Shown here: one piece after another, positions 5,689 to 51,058 of the stretch | How positions within the stretch are numbered: position 1 is the first letter of the stretch | Layout: every line of letters starts with the position of its first letter | Origin: Atractiella rhizophila | Lineage: Eukaryota | Direction: 5' to 3' | Length of the DNA stretch: 51,224 nucleotides | Assembly: GCA_021432655.1 (NCBI GenBank) | Contig: MU271514.1 | Span: 1 to 51,224 of the forward strand | Program-made: the position numbers and the translations under genes | The notes under the pieces: generated by a model | What the model saw: only the letters and a program-made list of their open reading frames with translations | What the model was told of the DNA's origin: nothing | Database searches by the model: none

Positions 5689-5713
5689 GACGGCGCAACT
5701 CAGGCAGCACATG

Positions 5714-6048: not shown

Positions 6049-6073
6049 CCCTTCTCGACCTCCTTGCGACCGA

Positions 6074-6820: not shown

Positions 6821-7134
6821 TGTTCTGTTCTCCGTTTTTGTCGTCTTTTGGATCTGAATGTGAATAAAACTGCCTTGCGTGTGTAATTTCTGGTAGCAAA
6901 CAGACCGCCATATGTGCAATCTCAAGTATTGTCACATCATGGAAGCAAGGAAAAGAGACCGAAGTAAGGTTTTCAGGGAAGAAGGTGGAAAGGAAGGCAA
7001 AGTGCACCCTTTCCGCTTGATTTGGCTGCACGATTATTTCCTGTAAACTCAAGCCTCGAAAAAAAGTGCTGCACTGTTGCCGACAATATTCTATGGTTAA
7101 ACGTAGCTGTATTTCCTCCATCGTACACTACATG

Positions 7135-7748
7135 NNNNNNNNNNNNNNNNNNNNNNNNNNNNNNNNNNNNNNNNNNNNNNNNNNNNNNNNNNNNNNNNNN
7201 NNNNNNNNNNNNNNNNNNNNNNNNNNNNNNNNNNNNNNNNNNNNNNNNNNNNNNNNNNNNNNNNNNNNNNNNNNNNNNNNNNNNNNNNNNNNNNNNNNNN
7301 NNNNNNNNNNNNNNNNNNNNNNNNNNNNNNNNNNNNNNNNNNNNNNNNNNNNNNNNNNNNNNNNNNNNNNNNNNNNNNNNNNNNNNNNNNNNNNNNNNNN
7401 NNNNNNNNNNNNNNNNNNNNNNNNNNNNNNNNNNNNNNNNNNNNNNNNNNNNNNNNNNNNNNNNNNNNNNNNNNNNNNNNNNNNNNNNNNNNNNNNNNNN
7501 NNNNNNNNNNNNNNNNNNNNNNNNNNNNNNNNNNNNNNNNNNNNNNNNNNNNNNNNNNNNNNNNNNNNNNNNNNNNNNNNNNNNNNNNNNNNNNNNNNNN
7601 NNNNNNNNNNNNNNNNNNNNNNNNNNNNNNNNNNNNNNNNNNNNNNNNNNNNNNNNNNNNNNNNNNNNNNNNNNNNNNNNNNNNNNNNNNNNNNNNNNNN
7701 NNNNNNNNNNNNNNNNNNNNNNNNNNNNNNNNNNNNNNNNNNNNNNNN
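7135..7748. other. Assembly gap (N run)
   Basis: Run of n. Confidence 1.
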
Positions 7749-8331
7749 CCAGCTATGAGGAGGAGAAAGCAGATCCAACGCCAGAGGTATTTCCCATTGT
7801 CTGCGTTGTCCGAAGGCATGAGCATTCCAACAGCAACGCCCATCATGATGACGGCGAGGCCGTCCGCGATTTTAATCGTTGATGGAGATGCCTCGCGTTT
7901 TGTCATGTTCTGAGTGGTCTTAATAACGAGGAGAACAAGCTCTTCAATACGTGTATGCTGTCACAAAATAAATAAACTCGACAGAGATGATTGAATTTCG
8001 CGTTCACCTCGATTAGAGTGCTGTTTGCAACAGGTATATTTGCGGAAGGTGAGCTCTCGAAAGCTATGACAGTGGGATTCCTAGCTGCGAGTGAGATGCG
8101 AATTGAGAAGGCATTACATAGAAGCACCTTTGAGGCGTAGATTCAGCTGCATGCAGGTTCAGCCGCTCACTTTGGATCACTTGAGATGGTGGAGGTATGC
8201 TTTGCCCAGCTTGAGCATCAAGGACGGTGTCTGGTCCCAAGCTATACTCTGTCAGTCTCACCAGACACGTAGAGGTCAAAGTGAATGTACCATTTCATGG
8301 ATGCAGCAGATGCAATAGTGCAGGACGTCAT
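7749..8331 (-). CDS. Orphan multi-pass membrane protein, copy 2 (3' part lost in gap)
   Basis: EASPSTIKIADGLAVIMMGVAVGMLMPSDNADNGKYLWRWICFLLLIA is nearly identical to copy 1. Confidence 0.6.
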
Positions 8332-8702
8332 GGAAGTGACCCAATTACGTAATGGTTGAACTGCAAATTTGAGTCTGACTAGCTCACTTATTTATCTTCC
8401 AGCCTTGGACCAGGGTCGGTGGTTAGTTGGGGCTGAGAAGCTGAACTACCCACCTGAACTGCAGAGCTCTCTGAGGCGCTGAGATTGGAAACATTGGAGA
8501 GGTTCCTCTTTTTAAACTACAAGAGGGCAGAAAATGTAGCTGGGACAGAGGGATGAGAAGGTTTGGATTTGGATTATCAAGGCGGACCAATTCAAAAATT
8601 CCAAAGTTTTGAATGTCAGAACTGTAATTCTTTACCATTTCCGCCCGCTACAATCCAAATAAGGGGAAGAGCTTTGGAGGAGAGCGAAGAGGATCTGGCG
8701 AA

Positions 8703-10967
8703 ATGTTCCCTGGCGCCTTCCCTTCTACTTCTGCACCACTGCCGCCACTCACCGTGCTATACTACTCCCACTCCAGCACAACCCGCCGCCTCGTATCCGT
8801 CCTCACCAAAAACATACCTACAGATCTTTCCGTCGAAGTGAAAACGGTGGATATCTTGGATGGATTTGACCTGGATGATCTGTTGGATGAGTCCACACCG
8901 AGATGGATTGTATGGATGATACCCAGCTATAAGGCGGAGGAGGGTGGAGGTGGCAAAGGCAGGGAGGTGGAGAGATGGGCAGAGGATATGAAGTACGTAG
9001 TTTCCCTTTGGCGCAAGAGATTTCGTTCTCGTCCTTCTTGGTACATGGAGACATATTTTCTTCCGTCTAAGCGAGATCTTTTTATTCGCATATTTGAACC
9101 GCCTTGCGCCTTAGTTGAAAGTGCTTATGAGCTCTCTCTACTTTCATCTAAGATACGCCACCTGCCTTACCATCTGCGAGACTCAACAGCTTGTGCAGAA
9201 CGAAGTCATAAAACACAATACTTTCTCATCGTGAAGCGCAAGGTCATTTCGAGCGATGCAAGAGGGTTGACTTGCTCCCAATTGGTTCATGCATTCACTC
9301 AAACAACTTTCTTATTTTTGCTCTTTCACAAGGTCTAAAGGCTAAACCAGAAACGTCTAATGTAAACTGGAATGAATCCTTGATTGTTCGGTACCGGTTT
9401 CCAACTTTTTCTGTGTCTTAGTACAATATTCTCTGTTGCTACATATGTTCCCTCACATCTATGTCGAAGTAGGGGAAACCCTCCACATTCTCTCTTAAAG
9501 ATTTAGTATACATTTGTCTATTGGGATGCAATGCAAGCAGTACACAACTAATTTCATTGTTTGCACAGATACGATCAACGCCTGCACACCTCCACAACAC
9601 GCCTGTCACATACGCTCTATACGCTTGTCGCCATCGGCGACTCTTCCTACGGTCCGCTCTTCTGCAAGCAACCACTCCATCTCGCTTCCCTCATGAGCGA
9701 AATGGGTGCACGTCAGTTCCTCCCGTTCGTAGTGCCTCTCTTCCGTCTTATCAAGTCATGACTTGTGTCCCACTGGCAGAGCGAGAAAGTGCGATGTAGC
9801 TGTCGATCCTGAAGAGACCATCCGTCAATTCGCCTCCAGTCTATCAGATCGTGTCAACGAACTGGCATCCCAATATGATTCGAAAAACCTAGAAAGCTGG
9901 AAAGAATTCCTCGAGCTCGTCCCCATCCAAGCTCCCTCAGTCCGCGCTCGCTCCTCAAAAGCGAAACAAAAGCTAGCGGCGGCGAAAGAGAAAGCGGCGC
10001 TCAAAGCGCGCGTGAACGGAGCAGCTTCTCTTTCGTCCGATGATGAGGGAGAGGGCAAGGCGGCGGAGGAGGATATGGATATTGAGGATTTGGTTGCGAT
10101 TGGGAAGGCGGAGGAAGAGAATGTGCCGAAAGATAATAGGAGAGAGATGATTACACCGCTTACGAGGAAGGCACTTACTAAGCAGGGGTATGAGCTTGTG
10201 GGATCCCACTCTGGAGTTAAGACGTGTCGCTGGGTACGTGTGTACTCGTACCTCAGTTTTATGTCATTAACCCATGATGTTCGTGTAGACAAAAAGCGCA
10301 ATTCGTGGCCGTGGGTTCTGCTATAAGCATGCATTCTACGGAATCCAATCACACCGGTGAGTGGCGACGGCTCGAGCTTCCGTCTTGGACTAAGATATAC
10401 AAGCTGTATGGAAACGACACCGTCTCTCGCATGTGCGAACAAGTGCACCTTCTGCTGGCGTTCGCATACGAATCCGGTAGGAACGACGTGGCGATGGAAG
10501 GTTGATGATGCGGAGGAGATTGTGGATGGCGCAATTAAAGGGCATCTGAGACTCATCGGTCAGTTGAAGGGACTTCCTGGGCTGAGGGAAGAGCGGTTTG
10601 AGGAAGGTGCGTCGCCTTCTCTCTCTATCCCTGATCCTTAAATCACCCCATGTTACAGCGAAGACCCCACGGCATGCTGCTCTCTCGCTCGTCGGAGAGC
10701 CTAGCTACGTGAGGTTCTTTGCGAGGGTTTTTAGGAATACGTCTCCAACCAGCTGTGCGAAGTCTGAGAGGAAGCAGGGTCGCAGCTACCTCTCTATGTC
10801 GACCCAGTGGAAAGGATTGCTTGCTTCTCCACGGCCTTTAACACGCAAAGCAGTGATTCTTGCAACTCTATACAAAGACGGTTATATAATCTACCTTACT
10901 TTTCACCTATCCCTTCTGCTTGTCTCACGTCCACAAGTTACATGAGGGCATAAACTCCCATCTTTTA
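8703..10967 (+). CDS. TYW1: tRNA wybutosine-synthesizing protein 1 (flavodoxin + radical SAM); 10703-10967 written mirror-reversed; 3' end in gap
   Basis: Flavodoxin exons (IGDSSYGPLFC), LTKQGYELVGSHSGVKTCRW, CMETTPSLACANKCTFCWR (CxxxCxxC), HAALSLVGEP. Reading 10967->10703 without complementing continues IFYPQI...TQLYLSIDA...DFWERF. Confidence 0.95.
10703..10967. other. Mirror-reversed (reversed, not complemented) segment next to gap
   Basis: The backward read attttctaccctcaaata... encodes the exact TYW1 residues expected after GEP and contains a gttcgt...ggcag intron. Confidence 0.95.
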
Positions 10968-11756
10968 NNNNNNNNNNNNNNNNNNNNNNNNNNNNNNNNN
11001 NNNNNNNNNNNNNNNNNNNNNNNNNNNNNNNNNNNNNNNNNNNNNNNNNNNNNNNNNNNNNNNNNNNNNNNNNNNNNNNNNNNNNNNNNNNNNNNNNNNN
11101 NNNNNNNNNNNNNNNNNNNNNNNNNNNNNNNNNNNNNNNNNNNNNNNNNNNNNNNNNNNNNNNNNNNNNNNNNNNNNNNNNNNNNNNNNNNNNNNNNNNN
11201 NNNNNNNNNNNNNNNNNNNNNNNNNNNNNNNNNNNNNNNNNNNNNNNNNNNNNNNNNNNNNNNNNNNNNNNNNNNNNNNNNNNNNNNNNNNNNNNNNNNN
11301 NNNNNNNNNNNNNNNNNNNNNNNNNNNNNNNNNNNNNNNNNNNNNNNNNNNNNNNNNNNNNNNNNNNNNNNNNNNNNNNNNNNNNNNNNNNNNNNNNNNN
11401 NNNNNNNNNNNNNNNNNNNNNNNNNNNNNNNNNNNNNNNNNNNNNNNNNNNNNNNNNNNNNNNNNNNNNNNNNNNNNNNNNNNNNNNNNNNNNNNNNNNN
11501 NNNNNNNNNNNNNNNNNNNNNNNNNNNNNNNNNNNNNNNNNNNNNNNNNNNNNNNNNNNNNNNNNNNNNNNNNNNNNNNNNNNNNNNNNNNNNNNNNNNN
11601 NNNNNNNNNNNNNNNNNNNNNNNNNNNNNNNNNNNNNNNNNNNNNNNNNNNNNNNNNNNNNNNNNNNNNNNNNNNNNNNNNNNNNNNNNNNNNNNNNNNN
11701 NNNNNNNNNNNNNNNNNNNNNNNNNNNNNNNNNNNNNNNNNNNNNNNNNNNNNNNN
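10968..11756. other. Assembly gap (N run)
   Basis: Run of n. Confidence 1.
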
Positions 11757-12811
11757 TGTCTTAAATGTCATGTGATTATTACCACGTTTCCTACCTTAAT
11801 ACCTAAGGTTTACTCAATACAACACTGACACTACAGCTATGCGTAATGACACTCTGCTCGACGCAGCTGACAACCTAAGAACAAACTCAAACTTGTTGTG
11901 CAAGCTTAGTCGCCCGTAGTTGTCGCCAGAACCTGTCTCCATTGAGTAATATTGAGTGCCTGCTTACATTATCAACCTGAGTCGGATGAAGATGCCAGGA
12001 GGTTTGTGTCGACTGGCGGGGCTGAGAGCGGAAGTAAGTGCGAGGTAGTTACGTTTGTCTGAGCTCTTGCAAACTCAGAGCATCAGGAAGTGAAATTGCA
12101 TGTGTCTGTAGGGCCATAGCTGTGGCATGCTGACGACCAGAAGTGCTGAATCATTCAAGAAAAATAAAGAATTTTGTGACCGAGTCGTCGGATTAGGAGT
12201 TATCTCAAATCAAGAAGATGTTCATGTGTTTGTTTCCTGGGAGCATCCAAGCAGCTGAAGAGAGGTATTCCGAGGGCCCGGAGGACGATTCTCAGTTTTC
12301 GCAAAATTTGTGACTGCCCGTAGGGCAGATCTGCTTTTCGATTTCCGCTGGTGAGGAGCGTATGTGGCTCTGTAGTGGATCCAGAATTACGGTAGAGTCA
12401 GACAGACTGACAGTACTCCAACTTTTAACACAGGGTACACTGGAAAGCGTGTGCTCATCTTCATTCTGCTAGCCCAAACTCGCCCGCCACCGCAGTCCTC
12501 TCATGTAAGAGAGCCTTGACAGGTCCCTCCGAGTCAGCCAACCAGCTAGTCTGGTGGAAGAAGTCAGGAAGGTAGTGAAGGGAAGGTTGGAAGGGAATTA
12601 AATTGAGTGGAAAGAATCCGAAAGAACGGGTTGGGAGGGGAAAGTAGAAGGGGAAGGAAACCCAGCTGCATTCGGTGTCCTTCGCTCCAACACCCAGTGG
12701 CGTACGTATGTAGAATAGAAAGCGCTCGTGATTCCATAATCGTCATCTTAAGGTATAATGTACACTAGAATCCAAAACCTGTGCTGCTTTCCTGTCGGTC
12801 TACCCCAGCGA

Positions 12812-14979: not shown

Positions 14980-17900
14980 TCAAATCAACTTGCCCTCCAT
15001 CCTCGCCGTCCTCCTCTCTCTCCTAACCCTATCCCTCTTCTTCTTCCTCATGTTCTCCCTCCTCTTCCCAAACCTACTAATACCCTCCGGATCGACCTCT
15101 CTCTTCTTCCTCTCCTCCAAACCAGCCACCCTCTCCCTCTCCTCCTCCTCCAACACATCCTCAACCTCCACCCCCTTCTCCTTAACCTCCGCCTTCGACC
15201 TCCTCCCCACAACAGGCACCCCAGGCCGCTTCGGTCGATGAGGGAAAGCGTCTCCCCAATGGGACTTTCGAGCATCATAGTACGCCTGGCGACCCTGAGA
15301 CCGAGGGATGACTTGGTCTTCAAGCCATCCAGACGACGCACAGACGTGCATCGCGACGTGTCCAGACCTTTTGAGCGGTGGGGAGATGAGACGCGGCCAG
15401 TAGAGCGATTCTTCCCTCTTGATTCCCGTGCCCGCCAACTCTTCGTCTAGTTCTATACTCTCTGTATCACCTTCTTCTTCTGCGGCTGATCCTGAGTGGT
15501 TTGACCACGTCCCCTCCACGTTGTTGGCGTTGGCTCCTGCCTCGAGATCTACGTGTCGGTCCCAAGAAGGGTTTGGGTTCGGAGGCTTCTTCCCTCGACG
15601 AATGACGAGGTACGAAAACTTGGCGTCCTCCTCTGCCTCCGCCGTCTTCCCTCCTTTCGTAGCTCTATGCCACTCCTCCGTCTGCACTCTCTGCGAAAAA
15701 TTGCAGGTCCTCTTCAAGTTGGCCAAAGGACAAGAATACATATGAGGACAAGGGGCGACGATATGGGCTCCCCTCTCTGCTCCCTCTCCCTCTCCCGCAG
15801 AATTAGCCTCCTTCATATACTTCAACATCTGCGTCCTAGCTTCATTCAGATACCTGAACCCCCTGGGCGTCCCTCTCTCAATCAAGACCATGACTTCCGC
15901 TCCGCTCTGCCACAACAATCTCACCGTCCTCCGTCTCGCTTCATCGTCACCTAAGTCCTGCAGCGTGAACGCGCACAACGCGAGGGTCTCCTTTCCTATC
16001 ACTTGCTCTTCTTCTGTGAGCTGTGTGGAAGATGATGAGGAGGAGGGAGGGAGGAGGGAGGAGAAAGCTGCGCGACGGAGCGGGTCGGAGGGGAGGGTGA
16101 TGTCTGTTTTTGTGAACGTGGTGCGGAGGTGTGAGAGGGGCGGGAGGAGCGGTTGATGGTTTGCTTTTGATGGTGAGATGAGACGCGGCCAGTAGAGCGA
16201 TTCTTCCCTCTTGATTCCCGTGCCCGCCAACTCTTCGTCTAGTTCTATACTCTCTGTATCACCTTCTTCTTTTGCTGCTGATCCTGAGTGGTTTGACCAC
16301 GTCCCCTCTATCGCGTTAGTCGTGTTGGTTCCTGCTTCGAGGTCTACATGACGGTCCCAAGAAGGGTTTGGGTTCGGAGGCTTCTTCCCTCGACGAATGA
16401 CGAGGTATGAAAACTTGGCGTCCTCCTCTGCCTCCGCCGTCTTCCCTCCTTTCGTAGCTCTATGCCACTCCTCCGTCTGCACTCTCTGCGAGAAATTGCA
16501 GGTCCTCTTCAAATTGGCCAAAGGACAAGAATACATATGAGGGCAGGGGGCGACGATATGGGCTCCTCTCTCCGCAGCCGCTCCCTCTCCCGCAGAATTA
16601 GCCTCCTTGATATACTTCAACATCTGCGTCCTCGCCTCATTCAGATACCCAAATCCCCTTGGCGTCCCTCTCTCAATCAAGACCATGACTTCCGCTCCGC
16701 TCTGCCACAACAATCTCACCGTCCTCCGTCTCGCTTCGTCGTCCCCTAAATCCTGCAGCGTGAACGCGCACAACGCCAGGGTCTCCTTTCCTATCACTTG
16801 CTCTTCTTCTGTGAGCTGTGTGGAAGATGATGAGGAGGAGGGAGGGAGGAGGGAGGAGAAAGCTGCACGACGGAGAGGGTCGGAGGGGAGGGTGATGTCT
16901 GTTTTTGTGAACGTGGTGCGGAGGTGTGAGAGGGGCGGGAGGAGCGGTTGATGGTTTGCTTTTGATGGTGAGGCGGTCGTGGGGTCTGAAGACTGATCGG
17001 AAGAGGAAGAGACGGGAGGAGGAGAGGGGGTTATGGATGGAGGGCGGGCGGTGTGTAAAAGACGGTGGGAGAGAGAGATCATCGTTTGACTTATCTCCAA
17101 CCCAGTGTATTGCTGCAACGTGGAACCAAAAACTTCGTGTGCAGCCCTACTCACACGCATCAATGACATCTCCCGGAAGAAGAGAAGAAGCAAAGGGATG
17201 TGCATACCAAACCCCACTCCCCGTCCCACTCCCCCAATCCACCACCCTCCTAACCGTAACCTCCTCCCCAATCCTCGCCTTCGTCTCCATCAATACCCTC
17301 AACGTAGTCGCATACGCATAAGGCATAACGGTAGCCGCATAAGCGATACAATTCCCCGGCAACTTAAACGACGGTCGTCCATCCTTCCCCTCTCCCTCCC
17401 CCGCCGCCTCCCTCTCCGCCGCACGAGCGAGCTCCCGCTCCCGCTTCTGTTTGGCAGCTACCTCCTCCGGCGAGTCCGAGGTCAGGATGGGGTCGTTTAG
17501 ATCTTCTTCTTCTTCGGCGGTCAGACGGGGAGCGAGGGAGGCTTGGGCTTGGGAGCGGAGGAGGTTTTGGAGGGACGCTTTGCGGGAAGGCTCGTTCTTG
17601 TTCTTTAAGGACGAAGATGAGGATGGAGAAGAGGAGGAGGGAACGTCGGCAGCTGTGGAGCGGAGGTAGGCGTAGATGCTCTTAGAAGAAGAGAGGAAAG
17701 TGCTCCTCTCCATGCCTACCATCATCATCCAACTTTCATCAGTTCATCTCTCTCGCGATATAGATGCAATACAACACAACAGAGATGCAATACAAACACA
17801 AAAAAATCAAACTATAAAAGAGAGGAAGAAGGAGGAAGAGAATACGAACCAGCAACGAACCCCCCAACACCCAACGCGAGCTCTTTCGGGAGTACGACCA

Positions 17901-31684: not shown

Positions 31685-33290
31685 TCAGTTCGGCAGCAGA
31701 CCTTTCACCAGGATTGCATACCTCTCCCCGACGATCTTGATATTCTTGGTGGCTTGGTCGATCGCTACTGGAATCAGAAAAGGATGTCGATAAAAGGTGA
31801 AACATACCTCCAAATTCCTCAGCCGTCAAAAGGACGTCATTTGCACCCATGTTGTCTTCAAGCCACTTTTCCTGTTTCGTTCCAGGGATGGCAAAGAAGT
31901 CATCTCCCTGGGCTATGATCCAAGCAAGCTGGTGCCGCCGCGTGATTGGTTTGTGTGGTCATCAAGGAGTGGAAGTCACGAACAGCCAATTGAGCAGGCG
32001 TGCAGCCTTTCTTCTGAGCAATAGATTTCAAGACTTCGACGAGTTTGAGGTTCTGTAGTATTCTCAACCAGCTCTCGTTTGCACCCCCGGAAGATGATTC
32101 AATGACACCGCACTTCGTAGAAGGCATTTCCCTGAAATCGAGGATATTTTTTCCTGCTATCATCATCAGGAAGATCTTCGGGTTTTTGGAAAGCGCCGGT
32201 TAGAAATCCTTGAACCATCAAGCCATTCAATGAGTTTGATAGACCGAGAATTTTAAAAATGGTCACCTCTTCCTAGTGGTCTGTCGACTTGGTCACCTCT
32301 TCCTAGTGGTCTGTCGACTTGGCGTTAGAATTGCCGTTTTCAGGCAGAAAGCAGCCAGGCAGGCTTACGAGTAAGCGACCAACGCGATCCCTAGCTCCCT
32401 ACATGTATCGATGATTCCATGTTCTTCCGCCGACCTCTCCCATGCTGAGAACTAGGCATCATCGCCGTCAAATAAACTGTTTGAATAAATGTAAACTGGT
32501 AGCGGCGGACAGACCTCCAGTTGATACGCCGACAAAGGGATGATTGCATGAGCTCTTCTTACTTCTTCTGGTGTCGCCTCGCTGATGCCGAGATATTTGA
32601 CCTTTCCTTCCTTCTTCAACTCCGAAAGAGCCTTCCACGTCTCCTCGATGGGAACTGTGCGGTCAACCTAGCAACAAAAAGTACTCCTGAGGTATTTCCA
32701 AGAGGAACCAAAAGAGGCTAGACCTACTCTGTGTTGATAGTACAAGTCGATATAATCTACTTGAAGTCTTTTCAAGCTCGCGTTACAAGCTTCCCTCACG
32801 TAAGCATAGTCTCCCCTGATCCTAGGTCTACCGTCAGTTATCGTTCCTCCGAATTTCGTCCTTCAACAACAACTAGTCAGCATCTAAAATCCAAGCAGAC
32901 ACAAGGACGTAGCAAAAGGGAGACCTACGCAAGGAACACTTTCGCTCGCACCTCTGGATCCTTCAACACGGTCCCTAAAAGCTCTTCGTTCTTGCCATTT
33001 GCGTAAACATCAGAAGTATCCCAATGGATTGCTCCAGCTTTCAGAGCCTTTCATCGTCCCGCCGTCATCATGGTCAGTGCAGCCACTTCGTCGCAAGATC
33101 GATAGCTCACCTTCATCAGCACGGCTTGGCCTTGTTCCAGAGAAGGGATGGGACCATAGTAGTCTCCTAAAGCCATGCATCCCAAACCAAGTGCCGGAAC
33201 TAACTTCAAGTTCAGAATCGAATGAGAGAGAAGACAAAGCGTACTTTTTGGTCCGTTCTTCCCAAGGGTGTGAAGATTCTTGAGCGTCAT
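31685..33290 (-). CDS. Aldo-keto reductase (YakC/AKR13-like), spliced
   Basis: [83 protein letters not shown]. The frame can be completed to ...KGLLPN*. Confidence 0.9.
32261..32320. repeat. Perfect 30-bp tandem duplication spanning an AKR micro-exon
   Basis: ggtcacctcttcctagtggtctgtcgactt x2. Confidence 0.95.
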
Positions 33291-36397: not shown

Positions 36398-38955
36398 ATG
36401 TCGTCTAATCCAACCACTTTCGGCGACAAAAAGCAAAGCCACACACCTCCAAACACCTCTGGTGTCACGCCTGCGAACACGCCCGACTCCACGCCTGTGA
36501 ACACTGGGATCGATGTCATTGAGCTGTCCTATGTCCAGAGGAAAGGAATTGCGCGCGAAACTCAGGGACGATTTTTTCGGGCCACAAAAGGGGAATTTCT
36601 CGCACGATTTTTCCAAGGATACGGCAATAAGTCCATATCTTCAGCTGAAGTGACAAAATGGATGAACACTATCAACAATAAGTACCCGAAGGAAACAGAC
36701 ATATACGATCCTATTGTGAGTTTTCAACATTCATGACTGCTAGCCTCAACATTCGGCATTGATATACACTTTTATAGATCGAACTTCTTAACGAAGTCTG
36801 CAAGGCATCCAACTTACGTTTCTTTAACGTTCACAAGGGCAGCGACCCGAAAGTGTCCTCTCTCAATCGACCAGATTTCTTCGCGGTCGACACGGAGGAA
36901 GTGCGGGGCACAAAGTGCTGTGGCCACTGTGACGAAGGACACCGCTTAGACAAAGTGTGTTGGCTGCATTCAGAGCTCGTTGGCGACTTCAAGTTGTTGA
37001 GGGACGAAGATCCATTCGACGAGAGGGTCAACCTGACTCAGAACCGTATAAAGGCGCTCAATCAGCTACTTTACTATCTCTTCAACATCTCCCAGACGAA
37101 GCATCGAACGAGCGCCCTTCTTATTTTCATCTTCAGAGGTTCCGGCAGGTTAATTCGATGGAGTCCGAAATGTGTCGTCTTCACTGACTTGTTTGATTTT
37201 AAGAACAAAGATGACACAGAACAGTTTTTACAATCTCTCAAGACTTTTTCTGCTTCCCCTCCAGCTGAACGAGGCATCAATCAACACTTCCAGCTGGCAC
37301 CAGAAGCCGATTGTGAACTCGCTCGAGAGTTCTTCAAGAAGCATGTGTCAAAGATCGCGGCGGCGGGTTTTAACGATCCAACCGAGGGTTCAGTAACCTA
37401 CTGGGAAATCGCAATACCGTTCTCGTATGCATGCAAGACTGTGCATAGTAGCCTGACGACACCCTCGACAATCCCTTCCATCCCTCCCACTGGATTATCC
37501 ACTCGGAAAGTCACTGCCATCCGATTGGGCGGATATCCCGGGTCTCTGTGCGGAAGAAATGCCAGGTTTTTTGCGGGATGGGACCGCGATGGGGACGAAT
37601 TTGTTTTCGTTAAGGCGAGCTGGGCGTATACGGGCAATGGTCGTCTGCCGGAGTCTGCGATTTATCAGGAGTTAGAGCAACGCAAAGCAAATCACGTTCA
37701 GAGAATGCTCTATGGTGGTCCTGCTACTGGTCGTGAATATTCAACGAGCAACTGGGAGTGCGGTGAACTGGCGAGTGAAAAATTGAACGGCCAGGCCCAA
37801 ACGGACATACTGAATCAACAGTTTCACCTCATGGCACTGCCATTCGTTCGCCCTCTGTCAACTTTCAAAAACGGGCACGAGCTTCTTGTCGGAATCCTCG
37901 GGGCACTCCAAGGTGAATGAAGAGATGTTCAGTTCCTATCCAACTGACTTCCAACTTTTGAGGTATCGTTGAACTGAACAGAGCTGGGATACTCCATCGA
38001 GACATCAGTACTGGAAACGTGGTTCTCACCTCCAACAACAAAAACGAGGAAATAGAGGCTTTGGTTCAAGACTTCGACGTCGCCATCAAGATGCAAGGAG
38101 ATGGAGATAAGAGTCGCGAGCGGACAGTAAGTTAGCGCTCTTTCACTCAGGAGCATTCCTCATTTTTCTAAGGGGACATGGATGTTTATTTCGGCCCAGA
38201 GGATTGCTGGACAAGAATCTCACACATTATCGGACGATTTCGAGTCGATCTATCACATGTTATCCGTCCTTACCTATGCACATATCACCGAAACAGTCAT
38301 CCCTCAGCTTGATTCAAAGATCATCGGATACCTTGGCAGTACGTCGGCAGACTTAAAAATAAACGATATGACGGGCCAAGCCAACGGCTTCAAAGAGGAC
38401 GAGATCATACAGATTGACATTTTTGGGCCCATCATAATTCTTTTTCGCCTTTTCCTATCTACTCGCTACGCGAGAAATCCAGATCCAAAAAGCGTTCGAT
38501 ATGATATAGCCAAAGAATGTTGCACAATGCTCGATCTTTCCGACATTGACAATCTGTTGACACCATTTTTGCAACGACCAACGGATAAGGAGAAAGCCAT
38601 TGAGAGCGCGCTTTGGCACAGGGGCAAAAGGATCAAGATAGTATTTGATAGCGAAGAAGCTTGTCAATGTCTGATCAATGTGATTAAGGCAGCTCTCCTC
38701 CAGTCGTCTCATGTCGATGCCCTAAAACGGATGGATCACTTACGACCAGATCTCCTTCTCCAATATATGGAAGTAAAGCCTAGCATCAGCAGCTTCACCG
38801 ATGTCAGCACTGGCAACGTCAGCAACGTCAACGGCAACAAAAGAATTGCACTGCAGCAAGCCGGCCCTCAATCAAAGGTCCAACGAACGGCTACAACTAC
38901 ATCTTCATTGTCCAAGCCAGACCCTCAAGCACCTACGACTACACGACTGCGTTAG
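36398..38955 (+). CDS. Fungal-specific protein kinase (FunK1 / Pkinase_fungal)
   Basis: VFVKASW, PLSTFKNGHELL, ILHRDISTGNV, QDFDVA, GTWMFIS, HTLSDDFES; RLIRWS..VVFT in the N-lobe region. Confidence 0.85.
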
Positions 38956-40331
38956 TTTTATTAAGGCGTCTTTCCTGCAAAAAAGGGTAGAAGTGGGAAG
39001 TTGTAACTCGCGCTGTGGTTGAAAAATGGTAATTCCTGTTGAAACTGGGGGTGCGTGAGCTCCCATTGCAATGCATAACGGCATCACGGGTCGTATAACT
39101 TATATCACGGGTTTGGTGCACTGTTACCCTTAGCTCTTTATTGCCTGGGCTGCACTGACATTTCACACCGGCTTTGACTGCCCATGCTGGTTGGTACCTG
39201 GGGACACAAGCATAAGAAATAGCGGCCCAAAGTCCTGAACACATGCCAGATTCCATATTCACCTCACTCCATTCTCTTCGTGCAGCGAAACCAAACACAA
39301 ACAAATTTACTCCAAACTCTTACACCTGAGACATCTTCAAGTCTGTGAAAACCTGAGCCAACAAAAGCTGGTAAGGAACGAATGGCGGACAACACGGTCT
39401 TTGAAAGAGATCCGAAGTTGGCGGAACAAACTCCTCAACTCAACCACTACCTTTGACTTTACATCGTCCTGTGCTCAATCTCTCGCCTTGAGCACACCGT
39501 CCTGTAGCAAAATTATTGTTCGTACCAATACCCAACTCCCAACAGAGCTTTTTGCTCCACACCAAAGCACCAATGTCCAACGTACGGCAAAGTATGCCAT
39601 ACAGTACCAATGTCGAGTGTTGGGAGAGCTGCATGCTCCATGTCAATATTCAATGTATGGTAGAACTGCATGCTCTATGCTACAAGTAACAACACCCAAT
39701 GCCCTGCAACGTGCTACGGGCCATAAAGTATTCAGACAGTCGAATAAAGTAACCTGTGCAATCCAACAACTCTGCTCGTCACTTTGGTTTGGATGCAGGT
39801 CAGAAGCGCTACTGCTCTTTGCCCTGAAGCGCCGAACAGCATTTGGGATGAGTGTGCTGCTCTGTCCTTTCTGTGGGCTCTTGCCGGCCCTGTTATCTTA
39901 CGCGGGGTCTTGTGCCCTGCCTGGACGAAAGCATTCAGCCCAGGCCCACGAGCGCGCACGATCTCCCCGCGCTAACCAGCTGGCGTATACCCCAACATCC
40001 TGTTCTTGTATACCATTGCATTGCTAGGCCACCGGAGAGCTGCTTGCAAAGACACCACAACCTCAAGACTTAGCTTCCGCCCATCACCAGCCGGGAACCT
40101 TCCTGTAGACGCGATCGACGAAACTTTTTGGTCTTTCCCTCAACCTCTCTCAACAGCTCCATCTTACTTTTATCCACTTTGAACGGCGAAGCGAGGGGCA
40201 AAGGAGAAGCATGGGAAAGAAGCGGAAAGCCTCTGAAGTCGTTCACGTTAGTCTCGTTGGTCAAGCTGTGTGGGACCCGCTGAGGTTATAGCATGTGATA
40301 GGACGAAGATGTGAGTACGAGCACTATACCT

Positions 40332-43300
40332 ATGGCCAATGGGAATGCGTTTCAACCTGTGGAGGGTGATGTTGTCGAAGCTAAAGTGGAGAAGCGGCGG
40401 AAGAAGAAAATTTCGGCTGAAGACCTTCACGAGCATGAGCGAGACAAACCTGTAGCTGAAGCAGGAGAAGGTAAGGGGAAGAAGAAGAAGCGTGAGGAGG
40501 AGCCATTCGATGCTGGGCTCGTTGCAGTTGAAGAGGATGGAGGCAATACCACGAAGCCGAAAAAGAAAAAGAAGCGATCTCTTCTGTCTGAGCCATCACA
40601 GCTGCTGCTGGCGAATGAGGAGGACGAACAGGCAGCTACGCCTACACCCTCTACCTCTAAAACCCGTTCTAAATCCAAGAGCAAGAAGCGGAAGCCTTCT
40701 GTTGTCCCATCTCTGCCTCCTACCGTCGAAGAACCGCTGGAAGAAGTTTTGGTAGAGGAACACCGGGTGGAGGAGCCTCTTCCTGAGCAGGAGGACGAAG
40801 AACCAGCTAGGAAGAAAAAATCGAAAAAGCGGAAGAAGTCGACTGGCCAGGAGGGGGAAGGTGAAGAGGAAGAGAGACCAAGGAAGAAGAAGAAGCGGCG
40901 TTTGGAGCCTCCTGAACCAGTGGAAGCTGGAGCTGACGAAACTGAAGGGGAGGAAGCTGAAGCGGAAAAGACAGATAAACAAGAGCGGAAGAAAGACAGA
41001 AAGAAGAAGCACGGGAAGCAGAAGAAAAAGGAGAGGAAAGCCGCTTTAGATCCTCCAACTCTGGAGGAGTTGGATGAACCCGCCCTCTCGCACAATGAGC
41101 GCACTCCGACTCCGCAACTGGAGCGAAAACCCGCTTCGCCTCCTGTATCTCATCCCGATCAACGCGAGCCGACTCCGACGCCTACTCTGGCCAAGGAGAA
41201 GAAGAAGAAGAAGAAGAAGAAGCGGAGAGATCCCTCTCCTCCTTCATCCTCTCCTCTAGCCCCATCTCCACCTTCTGAACAGTCACCTGAGCCCGAGCAG
41301 CTTGAGGAGCCTCGGGATTATGAAGACATGACACGGGACCCTGTTTCTCTTGTAGATGCGGAAGAGGATGCCGAAGAAGAGGTACCTCGGACGAAGAAGG
41401 GGAAACGGAAAAAGGGAGATGAGAAGAAGAAAAAGAAAAGGCGGAGACCGGAGGAAGGGGAGGCTGAAGCCATGCTGATGGAAGAGGAGGTGCCTTTTGG
41501 GAGCGAAAACGAAATGACTGCCGAAGTGCAGGACAGTTCTCAGGCTGTAGCAGAGGATCTCATCGCTCCTGCTGATGAAAATGAACTAGGAACGAAAAGG
41601 AAGAAGAAGAAACGGAAGGGGAAAGAAGGGGAGGATGGACTGCGTCTTGATGATGGGGAACAGGATTCTATGATCCCTGTAGAGCGAAAGACAAAAAAGA
41701 GGAAACGAAAGGACACTGTAGCGTCTGAAGCAATGATGGACGCGGAGGAGCGGGGAGCTGAATCACCACCAGCCAAAAAGAAGAGGAAAAACAAGATATC
41801 TCGTCCATTGATGGAGGAGGACGAGTCTGTCCAACAACCGATTCCTGTTCATGAGTTATCTGTGGAGAACCAAGATCCACTCGTCCCTCTTTCAAAGAGG
41901 GCAAAGAAGAAACTGCGCAGGAAGAAGGGGAGTAGCAGCGTTGGTTCGTCTGCCTTTCTTTCATATTGTCACATTCAACTGATGGGTATGCGTAGATCGA
42001 CTTCCTTCACAGGCCACGCCGCCCTCGCTTTCGATTTCTGCCATCATGTCCAAATCACCGAGCACACCAGTTCAACCCCATGCTGTCTCTCAACGCAATA
42101 AAGGGGTTCAAACTTCGCCCCATCTCGCGAAGGTCTCTCGTCGCGACATTGGGGTGCAAACATCCCCCAATCTAGGGAAATCGACGCTTCACCGTTCCAC
42201 AGCTACACTCGGAGGTGATGTGAGACATGGTATCCAAGAGTGGAAAGAGGGAGGAAAGGCCACTTCGACGCGAGCTTTCTCTTCAAACGAGGCGTCTCAC
42301 GTATCAACGCCAAAGCAATCAATGTCAGAGTCTAGTTCGGAGTCGGAAGAAGACGAGGAGGACGAGCTGCAGTCACCCAAGAAACGGATAACTGCTGCTC
42401 GTCCCCTGTCGTCTCTCCAGCCTACGGCGACGAGAAGCGTACTACAGAAGGATATGGACGATATACCTGATGAAGTTTTCGGAAATCTCTTGCCTGCTTT
42501 CAAGTTGAATGGCCCGAGAAGAAAGTCAGACTTTGGCTTGGATGACTCGGAGGATGAGATGGCAAATGGAGAGAAAATGACACATGAGCGGGAGCGTTCA
42601 AAACCGAATGGGGAGATAGCGCAAAACAGTAACCGATCATCATCTGAACCGCGAGAACAAAAAAGTGCAGCCTCGTCGTCATCTCCAACTCCTCAGCCTG
42701 AAACTGCAACAGCATCATCTGCTGCCAAGGGCGAACAAACCACAGAAAAAGCATCATCAGATGAAGGGGCTGAAGTGTTCAGCACTCCTCTTCCCACCCA
42801 ATCCTCAATCCATAACGCTTCAAAACTTGTGCCAAATACATCTTCCCAAGTGGATGAGGCCGCCATCGAGGCTCTCATGCGGAAGTGGGACGATGCCGAT
42901 TCCCGCCCCACGAACTATAACAGGACAGCCCCCTCTTCTAGCTCCAGCGACGAATCGACGGACGAGGAGGAGGAGGAGCGAAAGCGGATTTCCAAGGAGA
43001 GAATGGCAGAGTTGGAGAGGAACGCGAAAAAGGTCGAGATACTGGATGCGAGCGAGTTCGACCGTATTGCTAGGCAACTGGAAGAAGAGCAAAAGCAGAG
43101 TAAGATGGGGTTGAGGGAGATGTTGGGTGCTGAGGCTACTGAGGAGGAGGATATTGAGGAGAACGCGAAGGAAGCGAACAACCGAATTTCGGACAGCGAA
43201 AACGAACGGGAAGAGGGAGCGAGATTCACGAAGAGCAATATCGAACACCGATACGACGATTCTTCGGAAAGCGAGACTGGAGCAAGGCCTGGAGGCGACG

Positions 43301-44400
43301 AAGATAGCGAAATAGATGTGGCTACAGGTCCAATGGTGGAGTTTGATGACATAAATCCAGAGTGTGAAGCAGCGAACGATGTGACTCCAGATCCTTTACC
43401 GTCCGGCGCCAATGCCCAACAACCTCCAAGGGATGCATCTGGAGAAATAGGTCCTAAGTCACACATAGAGGAGCGAACACAGGATGCCTCTCAACCTAAG
43501 CTCAGAGATGTTGCTTTGATTTTGGAAGAAGACTCTCAATTTGTCCATCCTCCACAGTCTGAAGACGTCGAACCGTCTTCCGTCCAGAATGACGAGATAC
43601 CGTCTTTTGAACAAACTCGAAAGGGGGCTATTATCGTTCCCCAGATGATTGTGGTCGAAGCTCCCGCTCCCAAGGAAGACGATGAGCCTCAGGCTCTCGC
43701 CTCGAGTATATCTCCAGTGCAGGAAACAGAAACTATTTCCGAGAATAAGGAGGCAATGTCATCCACGACGGAACTGCCACATTCTGTCAACCTGGATTCA
43801 GAAGTTGCAATGACACCGGACCAGCCAAGCCATCTCTCAAATGGGAACAACTTACAATCGCCAGTTCCCCTTGGCGTTCAGACCTACCAGGAACAGAGTA
43901 GCCAGTCACGTCCGCTGGATCGACAAACGCCTCCACCACTATCTCCCACGAGAAGCAATCCGCCACGTTTTGCAGGTGTCGTTATCAAAATTCCGACTAA
44001 CAAAGAATCAAGTCATTCTCCAAAACGACAAAGTTCCGAGACCTCGCGTCGCGCTGAGCAGAATAGTGGTCAACAAACTAAGCTCGGTATGTAGTCCTTT
44101 CAGAAAATGAGCTTTCTGACATTTAAGTAGACCGGACGTCGTCTCAATCTCAGGAGTCTGGCGCTCACTCGTCTTTGCTGGAGGGTAACTTTGGTTTCAG
44201 CCGTTCGTTGCACAATCCTCAAGAACAAGGCACGCCGACTTTGAAAACCCTCGAAACGAATGGCCTTGAAACAGAGACTACACCAGTGGTGACGGAACAA
44301 CCACTGTTTTTTCCTCAGACTCAGTTGGACACTATTCGGCAGGAGAGTCCTTCAGAGCCAGATAGTACGCCTGTGCAGCACAGCCCAATCCTGTTTTCCC
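40332..44400 (+). CDS. Large disordered Lys/Glu-rich protein (poly-Lys clusters); last 130 codons lie mirror-reversed at 48210->47818
   Basis: Long ORFs 40311-42101, 42046-44094 and 44175-44400 joined by short introns. The frame continues LFS|QVEAQVHSPISQ...SSSEEDSE* when 48210->47818 is read backwards without complementing. Confidence 0.75.
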
Positions 44401-47400
44401 GCCTAGATTATTTCTCTAGCACAGCGAGAAAACGCAGTAATCCATAAGTGGTTGAAGTTAAAAAAAGCTAACTAACTATTGTTCTTACGAAGTGAGAGTA
44501 CGCGACTCAGATGTACCAACGTAGGAAAGTTACGTTACACCATTTTCTACATCGTACTCGTTGCTCTTGGTCTCGATTCAACGTATCGGTAAACAGTTTA
44601 CTCGGAACCCTCAAGATATGAAAATGAAGTTCGCAGAGTAAGACATAGTCTTATTTCTTTTGATCTTATACTCCTTGCTCCTGGACAGGACCTTTCTCAC
44701 GACACCGTGTTTTTTTTTTGGATAAAATTTATAGTTATACACGATTTGCAGCAGGGACTTTTGGTAGCGTCAGTAACAGAAGCCCAAATGCAACAGTTGG
44801 AAAGTCCTTCCACACGCGACTATGATTAAGAATCAGTAATGGGCTGGGTTTGCCTTTAGGTGATCTCCGTCGTTCTTTGACAATGTGGAAAATGTTCGCT
44901 GAAGTCAGCCGCCTGCCCGTGACCTCGCCAAATATGCTACCTGGTCCACACTATAGTAACCAGCAGTGTTACTTTACTCGACTGGTCATACTATCTTAAG
45001 AACTACACACCACCGTATAAGAAACAAAACCGCCCCTGACTGTCCTGCGTCGGGTCCCTAACAAAAGCGTTACATGTAGTGCTTTTGTGGCTAAGGTCTC
45101 CTCACCTCCTAACTTTAAAGCGCTATAGAAAAGTTGTGGGTTTCTTTCCCCCTCTTCCTGTTAGCACCTACCCCTTACAGTCAATAAAGTAGCTAAGAGA
45201 AAATATACGATATGATTATGTCGCCACAATCTGTATAGCTCTCAGTTAGTTGACACAAGCCTTGTCGAGACTTGATGCAACGATACGCTTATAATCCGCA
45301 CCTACGCCTTCTCCTTACGTACCAAGTTCGAGCACCTTGTGATGTACGTGACCCAAACACGAAGGTCAGTAGATTTTGACACAAATTGGTCGTATCACGT
45401 CCGCCTCGATGACCGCAAGGAAGTACCCCTTTTAAGACCGAATCAGAGTACTTGGAAATGCTTACCCTACCACAGTCAGGACATGGTGGTCTCGACACCA
45501 CCCAACAGAAGAAAGCAGTGATGGTACAATAATTAAGGTTACTTTTTCCGAAGACGGTTTGGAGGACGGGTAGGTAGGAACCGCAACCATACACCTAGGA
45601 GGAATACGCACCGCTCGATTGGCCACAGGACCTCCACCTAAGTATGTGCCTTACAGATGTAAGGGCACCCGATAGATACGCCTGAGGTCATATTTTGCGG
45701 AAATTGCGGTAATGAGCTCTTTTAAGCTCTCCTCTAAATGCAGGTTAGTATAAGTCTCTAAGTGACCGGGTCAACAGCGTGAATGCAGCGGGGCTATCTG
45801 GAAATAAGAGGTGTATGTTTTTGCCAGCTACGGGAAAAGAGAGAAAATCCCGAGACCCTATTTACCTAGACGGGAAGCTAACACTCTTTCTTTCCTGAGC
45901 TCCGCCGTATGTTCGAGTAGCAAATGCTTCTACTCTTGTGCGGAATGGTCTGCACGCAAAGGGAGTGAACAAACGCATCCTTGACTCGTAACCGCGTCGT
46001 AACCCGGACACAGGTTCCATCCGTTTATGGGCGGTATTTCGTTCCTAGACTACCTATGATTTTTCCGAAAGTTGTACCACTCGGCCAAGCAGCGCCTCCC
46101 TCTCGTATCACTTCGACAGGCCAACGTAGCACTCTTCCAAGCCCTAAAATACCACTCACAAAAGAAGAGACTGTCTTCAAACACAATTCAAAACAAGCAA
46201 TCACCTACAGAGGTTTTCCTAACCACTACTGTCCCTGGTTACCAAGTGTTGACACCCTATGGCCATTCGTTATCACACAAATGAGTCGGAGGGAGAGTGT
46301 CATGTTGGTCGCAAGTAGTGCGTTCGTGAGCAACTGTGCCCCGAACGTTGGCTAGGTAGTTTGTTTTTCAGGTAGGAGTTTCGAGTAGTTACCGAACTGC
46401 TAACGGTTTAGTTTCTGTTAGGCTTTGTAATGGTAAGACGTATGGCAGTCCGAAGCTTTCCACGAACCGGCAAGTCGTGGTCCCTCGTCAGAATATGGCA
46501 AAGGCTGTGCTGCCGACTTCCAAACTTTAGACACGACAAAAACGTCCTCTTCGAATCCATGCCCAAGCAAGCAAATGTTCTCTGTAAAAACTCGTACGTA
46601 TGGTCAAAGCAGGGGTTCAGTTATAGCTTCGTCTCCGAAACGCTATGACAGCTACAGGAAGACAGGAATGTCTTACGACTACCTCCTAAAAGCTCAATGC
46701 TCGGGTAGGCGCCTGGGGAGAAAACACTTACCGACTTAACACGACTCCAGAAACCCACTCAAAAGGGTGTTAGTATAGCGACCACCCGGAGTCGGCTTAA
46801 AGGTCCTTATAGTACCAACTTATGAGAATAGGGCCATGCAGGAACCAATAGCACGCTATAAGTAAATAAATAAATAGATCTCACATGTTTAAGGCAACAA
46901 TGACCAGATCAGGTAAAAGCCTCCTGCATAGGACTGATGTCCTTCCTGCTATAGCTCATTTAAACAGCAGACGCTCTCTTCCACAATGAGTGGGACAGAA
47001 TGTCACATAGTTACTTCGCACGATATAGAATGTAAGTATCGTTCGTTGCAAGTCCAGTCAAAGACTGCTGAATACCTACGGCTGACGAGTGGCATATCGT
47101 CTACCTTCGACCATGCCAAGTACCCGTTACATGTAGCAAAGTCTTATAATAGAAACCAGACTGATCTCGACGACTAATCAACAAAATGAATGCGGTACTA
47201 CAAGCGGAACCTCAGCAACCGAGAACACCCTCTTTGTATACTGTGATCACTGTCTCACGCGTTCCGTACAGTCAAAGAGGATAGTTTCGTCTTCGGCCTA
47301 CCACCTACCCCTCTTTCGATGGAGCACTCAACTTAAATGGAGAGGTCTTTTTACGACCCTAATTATCGTACAACATCTCAACGCTCGACGTTCTCATATG

Positions 47401-48210
47401 CGTTGTGGTTCTAAGTGTTCAACAGGTCTGGTCAACCCGATAAGATAGGAATAACGTGCGTTTCACGGGGTTGGTACTACGGTAGTCCTCACGTACGTTG
47501 AATTAGTACTCGTCTGTTGCCGGTCTACCCTCGAAATTTGTTCTCCGCTAACTTCCCCAAAAGTTATTTTTAACGCGTTAACGTATCATGCAAAGAAAAG
47601 CTGAAGTGTCTGCACCGATTACAGCTACGAGTCAGGATTAATGTTCAAGAGTACCTGCTAAACCCGAGACCCTGCTCGCGTATTCCTCGAGCGCTTCCTC
47701 TTTACCATTTCAAAGCCCAATCCGACATGGTGAACAGTATTATAAATGTAACTCCCTATTAGATTACGACGTACGACCATATATAAGGTACTCTCACGTG
47801 AATCTCGGTTCGGCAACAATGAGCGACAGGAGAAGACTCCTGCTGACAACATGACGTAGAAGGGAACAGTGACTATGAAACAATGATGACGCGCCCTCCA
47901 ATTTAAACTCGAGTAAGCAAAATTGTGCCGAACGTTCGACACGATTACTTCCAGAGACAGCGACTCTCTCGGCGACGCTTTCCGCGTGTCTAACGCCCCC
48001 CTGAACTCTACTTAGAACATCAACATCGGCACGTCTGACAGAACACCATGCGCAACGACGAGCACTCAGGCTGACAAAAACGACACTTCTAACAGCACGG
48101 CAGGCGAAACGTCCTCTTCCCCCTCCTCTGCGACTCACGCTGCCACTAACTGCTCCATTTCCATACCTCTCTCCAACTCTTTATCCTCTCACCTGAACAC
48201 GAAGCTGAAC
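44400..48210. other. Mirror-reversed (reversed, not complemented) 3.8-kb segment next to gap
   Basis: No meaningful ORFs in six frames, but the simple complement read left-to-right gives a complete intron-exon structure of lanosterol synthase. Confidence 0.97.
44835..47709. CDS. ERG7: Lanosterol synthase / oxidosqualene cyclase, exon 2 to stop, encoded in mirror orientation (read complement left-to-right)
   Basis: The complement translates to [127 protein letters not shown]...KW*, with canonical GT..CTRAY..AG introns. Confidence 0.95.
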
Positions 48211-48211
48211 G

Positions 48212-48743
48212 NNNNNNNNNNNNNNNNNNNNNNNNNNNNNNNNNNNNNNNNNNNNNNNNNNNNNNNNNNNNNNNNNNNNNNNNNNNNNNNNNNNNNNNNN
48301 NNNNNNNNNNNNNNNNNNNNNNNNNNNNNNNNNNNNNNNNNNNNNNNNNNNNNNNNNNNNNNNNNNNNNNNNNNNNNNNNNNNNNNNNNNNNNNNNNNNN
48401 NNNNNNNNNNNNNNNNNNNNNNNNNNNNNNNNNNNNNNNNNNNNNNNNNNNNNNNNNNNNNNNNNNNNNNNNNNNNNNNNNNNNNNNNNNNNNNNNNNNN
48501 NNNNNNNNNNNNNNNNNNNNNNNNNNNNNNNNNNNNNNNNNNNNNNNNNNNNNNNNNNNNNNNNNNNNNNNNNNNNNNNNNNNNNNNNNNNNNNNNNNNN
48601 NNNNNNNNNNNNNNNNNNNNNNNNNNNNNNNNNNNNNNNNNNNNNNNNNNNNNNNNNNNNNNNNNNNNNNNNNNNNNNNNNNNNNNNNNNNNNNNNNNNN
48701 NNNNNNNNNNNNNNNNNNNNNNNNNNNNNNNNNNNNNNNNNNN
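48212..48743. other. Assembly gap (N run)
   Basis: Run of n. Confidence 1.
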
Positions 48744-48946
48744 TCTTCATCTGTCATCTCCTCCTCCTTTCTATCTCTAACACGTCTCTTGTCCTCCCTC
48801 CAGACCTCCTCATACGCTCCTCTCTCCTCCCCTTCTTTCTCATTCCTCACATAAAACCAATTGTGTCTTCCGCTGTCCGACGAGTCCAGACGCCAATTTT
48901 GGATGCGCGTTTGTCCCAGTGGGCCTGGCGGATACACTTCTGCCAT
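48744..48946 (-). CDS. ERG7: Lanosterol synthase exon 1 (normal orientation, runs into gap)
   Basis: MAEVYPPGPLGQTRIQNWRLDSSDSGRHNWFY matches the OSC N-terminal WRL...GRxxWxY motif; the strand agrees with the un-mirrored rest of the gene. Confidence 0.8.
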
Positions 48947-49729
48947 AAATTGAGGAGTTCTATACGATATTCTAAGAGTAAACTGAGAAAAGACTGAAGA
49001 AAGGGATGAGGAAAACTCGATGGAGGTTTATATGGAGAGTCTAGATCTGCCGTCACGTTCCCGCAACGGGTTTGTGGCGGGTATGCGCATCAATCATGGC
49101 GAGTGTCCAACGGATCCCAACTACAACGACAAGATGTTTACAGTATTCACGACTGAAGGCTCCACTAAGTGTGGCCAGTTTCAAGTCGTTGTGGATGTGG
49201 CCTTGAAGTTTTATTGAATACTAGAAATCTCTGAATGATCTGTTGTAAGAGGTGTTTTGGGTGCTCTCAATCCATTCCTTCAGAGTTTTGACTGGGAGAG
49301 CGTCCGATTTGGAAACGTGAAGGTACTCTGATAGGCTAATGTGCCATTATGCTATGAGGTTGCACTTGGACTCCAACTCTGCAACAAGAAACGGAGTTAT
49401 TCAAAAGAACCATTTACAACTCCAGCAACCACGAACTCCACCCAGCTCCAAATCTTCCCTAAACGGCACCGGTATAATACGGCTCTTACTGAGTTCCTTA
49501 TGATATTTCAGTGGATACAATATTTCTTTGATTCAGCGCTCTCAGACAGCCCTCGCACGTGAGTGGAGAGCGTGAGAGCGCCTTCCGCCGCGATGACGTC
49601 TTGCCTTGCTCAATTTAGCAGCCAATGTTAATAAGAGTCTTCCTCCTGGTATTCGTTCCCATCTTTTCGCTTGAGTATCAGCTTGTGCGAGCTACATAGC
49701 ATATATTCACTTAAAACAGTTGCACGATT

Positions 49730-51058
49730 ATGTCGACCTCCTCCAAACAACGTCTTCCTTCTCCGACATCCTCGACAGAGGCACAAATACTGCACTACTC
49801 TCCCACCCGCCATCATCTACCCTTCTTTCATCCCACACGTGCGGCATTCAACTCCTCGACTGACGCTGAAGCACCAGCAGCGAAATGGAACTCTCGAGCC
49901 CATCGGAAGGGTCGGTATCCGCTCGGGAAGGAAGTCGAGGTTCACCATCGTCCTACCACCCCGGCTGCGGCTGAGAAACTTGCAGAGAAGGAAGAGGAGG
50001 AGGTGAAGAGGACAAGACATCGGATGCGTCTGCATCGGACCGGAGGGAAGAAGAGATTTGGAGTATGGGCAGATGTCAGCTTTTGGGTGGTTCGTTTCTC
50101 CCTCTCGCATTCATACCTTGCTTAACCTAAACAATCAAAAAGGCAGTAATATTTACTTTTGGATCCATCGCGTGGATAGTTAACGGATTCTTCGTCTTTC
50201 TTCCTCTCCTCGCACCCTGGAGAGATACTATGAGCGAGCACGAACAAGGTGTGTGGGAGAAGATCGCGGTAGCCTGGGCATTCGTTGGTGGATCGAGCTT
50301 CGAGATTGCATGTTACTTGATGGTTGTAGAGTCCCTGAATCGAGGGAGGGAAGGATCCTTTGGCGTCGAGATGGAGCATTTGTTGGGGGCAAAAACCATG
50401 GACAAGAAATGGGTGTGGTGGTATGTCTTGTCCTTCCTGCATTAGGCAAGGCGTCCTAACACTGCTGAGTGAAGGGGAAAGGGAAATTGGCGAGACTTGG
50501 GATACATGGCGAGCATCATACAATTTGCAGGGGCGACGATTTTCTGGATCTCTACCCTTACTGGGCTTCCTGGTGTGATACCGGGGTATCCTGACGGCGA
50601 GTATTCCGTTGCGATCGTGGACATCTTCTATTGTTTGTCTCCTCCCAGTGCTTATTCCTTCTGACACGAGCCTGACGATCACGAATTCAGGGGTACCCCA
50701 AGTCATCGGCGGCTCAGGCTTCATTATCTCCTCCATTCTCCTCATGCTTGAAGTCCAGCACTCCCTCTTCGTCCCCAACCTCAGGTCTTTAGGTTGGCAC
50801 ATCGGATTATGGAATCTCATAGGAGGCACCGCTTTCACTCTATGTGGAGCACTAGGTATCGCTCCGACTGCAAATCAGAACTTGACAGGTGTAGAGTTCG
50901 AGTCTGCCAATTCAACGTTCTGGGGCAGTTGGGCTTTCTTGATTGGAAGCGTCATCCAAACCTGGGAGACTGTGTACAGGGAAGATCCGACTGAGAAGGG
51001 GAGGGTGAAGGAGGTCGATGAGGAGAAGGGCACGGTTACGGAGACACAAGCAACTTGA
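49730..51058 (+). CDS. Fungal integral membrane protein (multi-TM), spliced
   Basis: WNSRAHRKGR, DVSFWV|AVIFTFGSIAWIVNGFF, AFVGGSSFEI, PQVIGGSGFIISS, GWHIGLWNLIGG, STFWGSWAFLIGS. Confidence 0.75.

Follow-up and report, generated by a model that had tools for sequence, protein, structure and literature searches.

The window analyzed here is the whole 51,224-nucleotide (nt) stretch of Atractiella rhizophila DNA deposited as contig MU271514.1 of assembly GCA_021432655.1. Near its right end lie a gene for a large protein, referred to below as the upstream gene, and ERG7, predicted to encode lanosterol synthase (an oxidosqualene cyclase); both are broken. The block from 44399 to 48211 (3813 nt), with a run of N at its right end, is a plain reversal, without complementation, of the true sequence that follows position 44398. 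It holds most of ERG7 together with the 3′ end of the upstream gene. A preliminary description of this DNA had placed the block at 44400-48210. The block is real, and both of its edges are shifted by one base, to 44399 and 48211, which are fixed to the base by the loose ends of read contigs described below. The window contains three N runs (7135-7748, 10968-11756 and 48212-48743), and a second, smaller mirrored block, belonging to the gene TYW1, ends at the second of them. The coordinates are summarized in Table 1.

Table 1. Features of the two mirrored blocks and of the genes that they interrupt
Feature	Position	Strand or reading	Basis or remark
TYW1, correctly written part	8703-10702	+	Mapping of P0125 and allelic proteins
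Second mirrored block, 265 nt, adjoining the N run 10968-11756 on its left	10703-10967	Readable right to left, uncomplemented	TYW1 mapping
Upstream gene, correctly written part (P0004 residues 1 to ~1346)	40211-44398	+	Exact mapping, 4 exons
Spurious 15-residue tail RLDYFSSTARKRSNP and stop of P0004	44399-44447	+	Translated from mirrored letters
Mirrored block, 3813 nt	44399-48211		Loose ends, log-odds, no read-contig cover
Mirrored non-coding stretch, 436 nt	44399-44834		AG acceptor immediately before the codon of ERG7 residue 80
ERG7 residues 80-746 and stop, 18 exons	44835-47709	Readable as complement, left to right; true sequence is the minus strand	Exon map
True 3′ end of the upstream gene, 130 codons and stop	47818-48211	Readable right to left, uncomplemented	Open reading frame; P0003 residues 458-540
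N run, 532 N	48212-48743		Hides the end of ERG7 exon 1 (residues 68-79) and the start of intron 1
ERG7 exon 1, residues 1-67 and two bases, correctly written, cut by the N run	48744-48946	-	100% identity to P0002

An intact ERG7 product is found among the public proteins of the same species as KAH8917940.1 (P0002), which has 746 residues, is annotated as “terpene synthase [Atractiella rhizophila]” and is encoded on an allelic scaffold of 48,333 nt. The 67-residue open reading frame at 48946-48744 on the minus strand of the window corresponds to the start of P0002 with 100% identity (1 match among 10 candidates). When the deposited window is searched with P0002 by tblastn, a single match is obtained, that of residues 1-67 at 48946-48746 on the minus strand. 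It lies outside the block, in agreement with the earlier remark that all six frames give nonsense there. The letter-reversed window returns seven matches, which cover residues 75-746 at 44820-47706 and correspond to the complement read from left to right; this is the outcome that had been foreseen for a search of the reversed block with a fungal ERG7. An exact exon map assigns residues 80-746 to 18 exons comprising 2004 coding nt, the stop codon included. The introns, 42-98 nt each, are bounded by GT and AG in all 17 cases in the mirrored reading, and the cyclase gene with canonical introns that the preliminary description had read at 44835-47709 is thereby recovered in full detail. Over residues 80-746 the window and P0002 agree at 666 of 667 positions, the sole difference being A350P; the splice solver was relaxed beyond an exact match to P0002, as needed for this substitution and for an exon of 19 nt. 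Un-reversal had also been expected to bring the rest of ERG7 onto the same strand as exon 1, and residues 80-746 are confirmed there. The mirrored non-coding stretch at 44399-44834 would then belong to the first intron of ERG7, a long one extending into the N run.

The domain and structure comparisons were carried out on the allelic P0002, which stands in for the mirrored translation. P0002 contains SQHop_cyclase_N (E = 2.5e-41) and SQHop_cyclase_C (E = 6.7e-46) domains, and its alignment with human lanosterol synthase (1W6K) spans residues 58-737 (E = 2e-189). The catalytic Asp of the VSDCTAE motif is aligned and conserved. The domains and the near-full-length alignment agree with a lanosterol synthase; what differs is the motif itself. 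Residues 472-478 of P0002, encoded by the exon at 46311-46563, read VSDTTAE where 1W6K reads VSDCTAE, a Cys to Thr change beside the catalytic Asp. By its domains and full-length similarity, the hidden gene is predicted to be an ordinary fungal oxidosqualene cyclase/lanosterol synthase (ERG7). It had been suggested that the error would make this essential gene look absent from the genome. This holds for the present scaffold; genome-wide it does not, since the intact 746-residue KAH8917940.1 is annotated on the allelic contig, so that ERG7 does not seem to be missing from the annotated genome.

The left junction is mended by the same operation. When the uncomplemented letters are read from 48211 down to 47818, the frame of the upstream gene is resumed after ILFS: the Ser codon is split tc|g across the junction, 130 codons follow, and the stop ends at 47818. 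The 130-codon stop-free frame of the preliminary description is hereby borne out, as is its statement that reversal alone restores both junctions, with the upstream frame extended on the left and ERG7 placed on one strand on the right. The public protein of this scaffold, KAH8918317.1 (P0004, 1361 residues), maps exactly on the deposited plus strand at 40211-44444. Its C-terminus reads ...HSPILFS and then runs on for 15 residues translated from mirrored letters, until the first stop is reached. The public protein closest to the upstream gene is P0003 (540 residues, 94% identity), which is encoded on the same 48,333-nt contig as P0002; P0004 is the second member of its 90% cluster. Residues 458-540 of P0003 map solely on the reversed reading, at 48194-47946. 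We also note that these 83 C-terminal residues use two other frames than the single 130-codon open reading frame of the un-mirrored window, which suggests indels between haplotypes, or that the allelic contig or its gene model contains errors.

Evidence of a different kind is provided by three public sequencing runs (X1-X3), used as contigs and placed on 42000-51000. Of the words sampled from 38212-48211, a fraction of 0.31-0.42 is present in these runs. In all three, contig depth is zero in every bin of 44408-48621 while the flanks are covered, and no read contig supports the deposited order across the block. Contigs of X1 and X2 extend beyond 44398 by 30 letters, which match the window read backwards from 48211 to 48182 at 30 of 30 positions; this loose end is found on neither real strand of the window. 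At the other side, contigs ending at 48744 add EKYWLGLDLG to ERG7 exon 1, the sequence of P0002 residues 68-77. The loose end thus continues exon 1, and the N run at 48212-48743 therefore hides real sequence. Finally, one contig of X3 (2841 nt) bridges 44398 to 48744 with 2536 letters in between. A length of 2540 (502 + 2004 + 34) is expected for the spliced, un-mirrored sequence. This expectation assumes that 44399-44834 is spliced out, and the observed length is one ground for reading that stretch as intron. For the bridging argument alone, X3 is treated as transcript-like; its contigs skip short GT..AG stretches. The un-mirrored order is hence present in the run contigs, in the loose ends as well as in the bridging contig, whereas the deposited order is not. 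Differences between the contigs and the window in the flanks are mostly transitions, with in-frame indels at 42207-42227 and 43156.

The composition of the block leads to the same picture without recourse to any protein. Held-out 5-mer log-odds, which compare each word with its own reversal and were trained on the rest of the scaffold, are negative in 17 of the 19 windows of 200 nt in the block (mean -13.5). Outside the block, 14% of 225 such windows are negative and the mean is +15.4, so that at 200 nt the statistic is noisy and 14% of normal windows come out negative. In word composition the block is the reverse of the remaining scaffold, in agreement, independently of proteins, with a mirrored block. 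The strongest outlier outside the blocks, at 32601, was rejected as a false positive, for it covers normal open reading frames. These frames, which resemble aldo-keto reductases, lie on the minus strand at 32452-32862, and the statistic reaches -17 per 200 nt there.

The second mirrored block interrupts TYW1. Two allelic TYW1 proteins are available for comparison, P0006 (545 residues, partial, on a contig of 13,833 nt) and P0126 (646 residues, on a contig of 33,183 nt). Both map on the plus strand up to 10702 and then in the reversed reading alone, at 10967-10923, 10876-10850 and 10848-10702. The block holds residues 309-381 of P0006 (410-482 of P0126), with E = 1.4e-30 in the mirror tblastn search, and TYW1 of Puccinia coronata (P0025) likewise matches it in the mirror alone (E = 4e-18). 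The reversed reading at 10851-10636 is also TYW1-like. The public protein of this scaffold, KAH8918306.1 (P0125, 485 residues), runs through the mirrored letters to 10942 and acquires a junk tail of 80 residues. Its match to Wyosine_form is lost, and Radical_SAM scores 19.8 bits against a cut-off of 29.5 bits, whereas the allelic P0126 has both domains. No reading of the window yields the C-terminal 164 residues of TYW1; the N run at 10968-11756 (789 N) presumably covers them.

Taken together, the large block is almost certainly an in-silico artefact of the public assembly rather than biology. The preliminary description had likewise assumed an in-silico error instead of a real DNA structure, and is supported in this by the read contigs and the public annotation. 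P0004 and P0125 exactly translate mirrored letters, and the reversal therefore belongs to the deposited assembly and preceded the annotation. Because the error was present before annotation, the gene models run into mirrored letters and stop early, and no ERG7 model was callable here. P0002 and P0003, from the allelic contig, are encoded by the un-mirrored order.

Each of the two mirrored blocks begins at an internal position and extends up to the N run on its right, and no base is lost at the inner junction. Such blocks would be produced if the terminal part of a contig, as far as the next scaffold gap, were written from its last letter to its first without being complemented; a minus-strand piece that was complemented but not reversed would have the same outcome. 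A gap-extension or patching step acting at contig ends probably wrote its string the wrong way round. The wording of the preliminary description, a gap extension written backwards, fits both blocks but is not proven. In the true order, the last 130 codons of the upstream gene stand right after 44398, followed by ERG7 on the minus strand, which ends in exon 1 at 48946-48744. As to whether the pipeline was at fault throughout, the balance tips slightly toward a systematic error in which contig ends before gaps were written backwards, as seen at two of the three gaps here.

The mirrored filler could also have originated from the reads, in which case the artefact would be one of the input and not of string handling. 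If a read library had been reversed without complementing, for instance during the re-orienting of mate pairs, local assembly in gap closure would yield mirrored sequence, and both blocks do adjoin N runs, where pair-guided local assembly would act. This origin appears doubtful, as the inner junction 44398|44399 is base-exact with nothing lost or duplicated, and an in-place reversal of 3813 nt amounts to one delimited string reversed, an unlikely product of assembling mirrored reads. A reversal introduced after deposition, by a handling error or as a deliberate decoy, with the public record being correct, can be conceived of because reversed, uncomplemented copies of genomes serve as a null in homology benchmarking, according to an excerpt of a preprint (bioRxiv 10.64898/2026.04.14.718546). 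It is nevertheless highly improbable: P0004 and P0125 exactly translate the deposited order, including residues inside both mirrored blocks. A real DNA structure, in the form of a haplotype-specific rearrangement, an inversion or a mirror repeat, is contradicted by the data and has practically no probability left: several allelic scaffold copies with at least 90% protein identity make structural differences between haplotypes conceivable, but ERG7 has no match on the minus strand of the block as deposited (residues 1-67 alone are found by tblastn, outside the block), a blastn comparison of the reversed with the real window gives nothing at E <= 1e-5, and the deposited order occurs in no read contig. 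A real inversion yields the reverse complement, and we know of no polymerase or recombination process that yields a non-complemented reversal.

Some observations weigh against an assembly artefact. The run contigs mostly carry the other allele, with differences of ~1-2% in the flanks; their alleles are mostly those of the 48,333-nt contig (e.g. 44301/44303) and in places those of the window. They strictly show the order of the allelic haplotype. If the block is un-mirrored in place, the first intron of ERG7 must be 436 nt or longer, in comparison with 42-98 nt for the other 17, which is unusual and unexplained. A mirrored left flank is present at only two of the three N runs of the scaffold. 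The Atractiella rhizophila genome is referred to as unpublished data in an excerpt of PMC13347111. Our literature search on Atractiella found no genome paper.

The artefact can be compared with three known situations. Misorientation of contigs is common in draft assemblies. The present case resembles misoriented contigs at scaffold gaps in its position at a gap edge, in the broken gene models, and in being exposed by reads and an allelic copy. An ordinary misoriented contig is a reverse complement and can be translated on the other strand, whereas here the letters are reversed only and no real frame encodes the gene. Mirror repeats, which can form H-DNA, likewise consist of a sequence and its non-complemented reversal. 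In mirror repeats both arms are on one strand, and they are usually short and homopurine-homopyrimidine; the present window lacks a forward arm, and what the block contains is an ordinary gene. The decoy genomes of the above preprint, as described in the same excerpt, are made by the identical string operation, which keeps composition and destroys homology. Decoy copies are deliberate and kept apart from the data, in contrast to a reversed string that sits inside a deposited scaffold and is annotated as real. Phrase searches of titles and abstracts found no paper on blocks reversed but not complemented in deposited assemblies.

No new biology follows from the block, and its practical value is one of data quality. 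At least three genes are damaged on this scaffold: ERG7 is uncallable, the upstream protein of 1361 residues lacks the final 130 and carries 15 spurious ones, and the TYW1 model is truncated with the loss of its radical-SAM and wyosine domains. Sequence that is only reversed is invisible to ordinary homology searches on either strand, and for this reason presence/absence calls, orthologue sets and phylogenomic matrices derived from the assembly can err near gaps. Two cases in 51 kb suggest screening of the whole assembly near gaps, and the record needs correction. If the fault is systematic, many gene models near gaps, possibly also in assemblies that this pipeline produced elsewhere, would be cut short or lost without notice. 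All cases could then be located by a scan of words against reversed words combined with mirrored tblastn.

The remaining gap edges are less clear. At the right edge of the second N run, from 11757 to ~11900, the reversal log-odds are -4.7 and -12.5 per 100 nt, and no protein maps at 11757-11900 in any reading. A small mirrored block may be present in this stretch, to the right of the gap. At the first N run (7135-7748), the log-odds give no mirrored flank beyond a possible 35 nt.

A diverged duplicate of the sequence surrounding the first N run occupies the start of the scaffold. Positions 1-401 resemble 6739-7134 (95%) and 946-2555 resemble 7749-9432 (74%), and a further pair is formed by 5695-6052 and 9528-9890 (85%). 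Fragments of the 5′ part of TYW1 are present at 1851-2098 and 5737-6047. Either a haplotype placed in tandem or a genuine segmental duplication may account for the duplicate at 1-7134. Separate contigs of 51,224, 48,333, 33,183 and 13,833 nt encode proteins with 90% identity or more, which amounts to two to three copies of the region in the public assembly and suggests unmerged haplotypes. A tandem duplication of ~0.8 kb is also found at 15368-16177 and 16164-16972, with 94.7% identity between the two copies.

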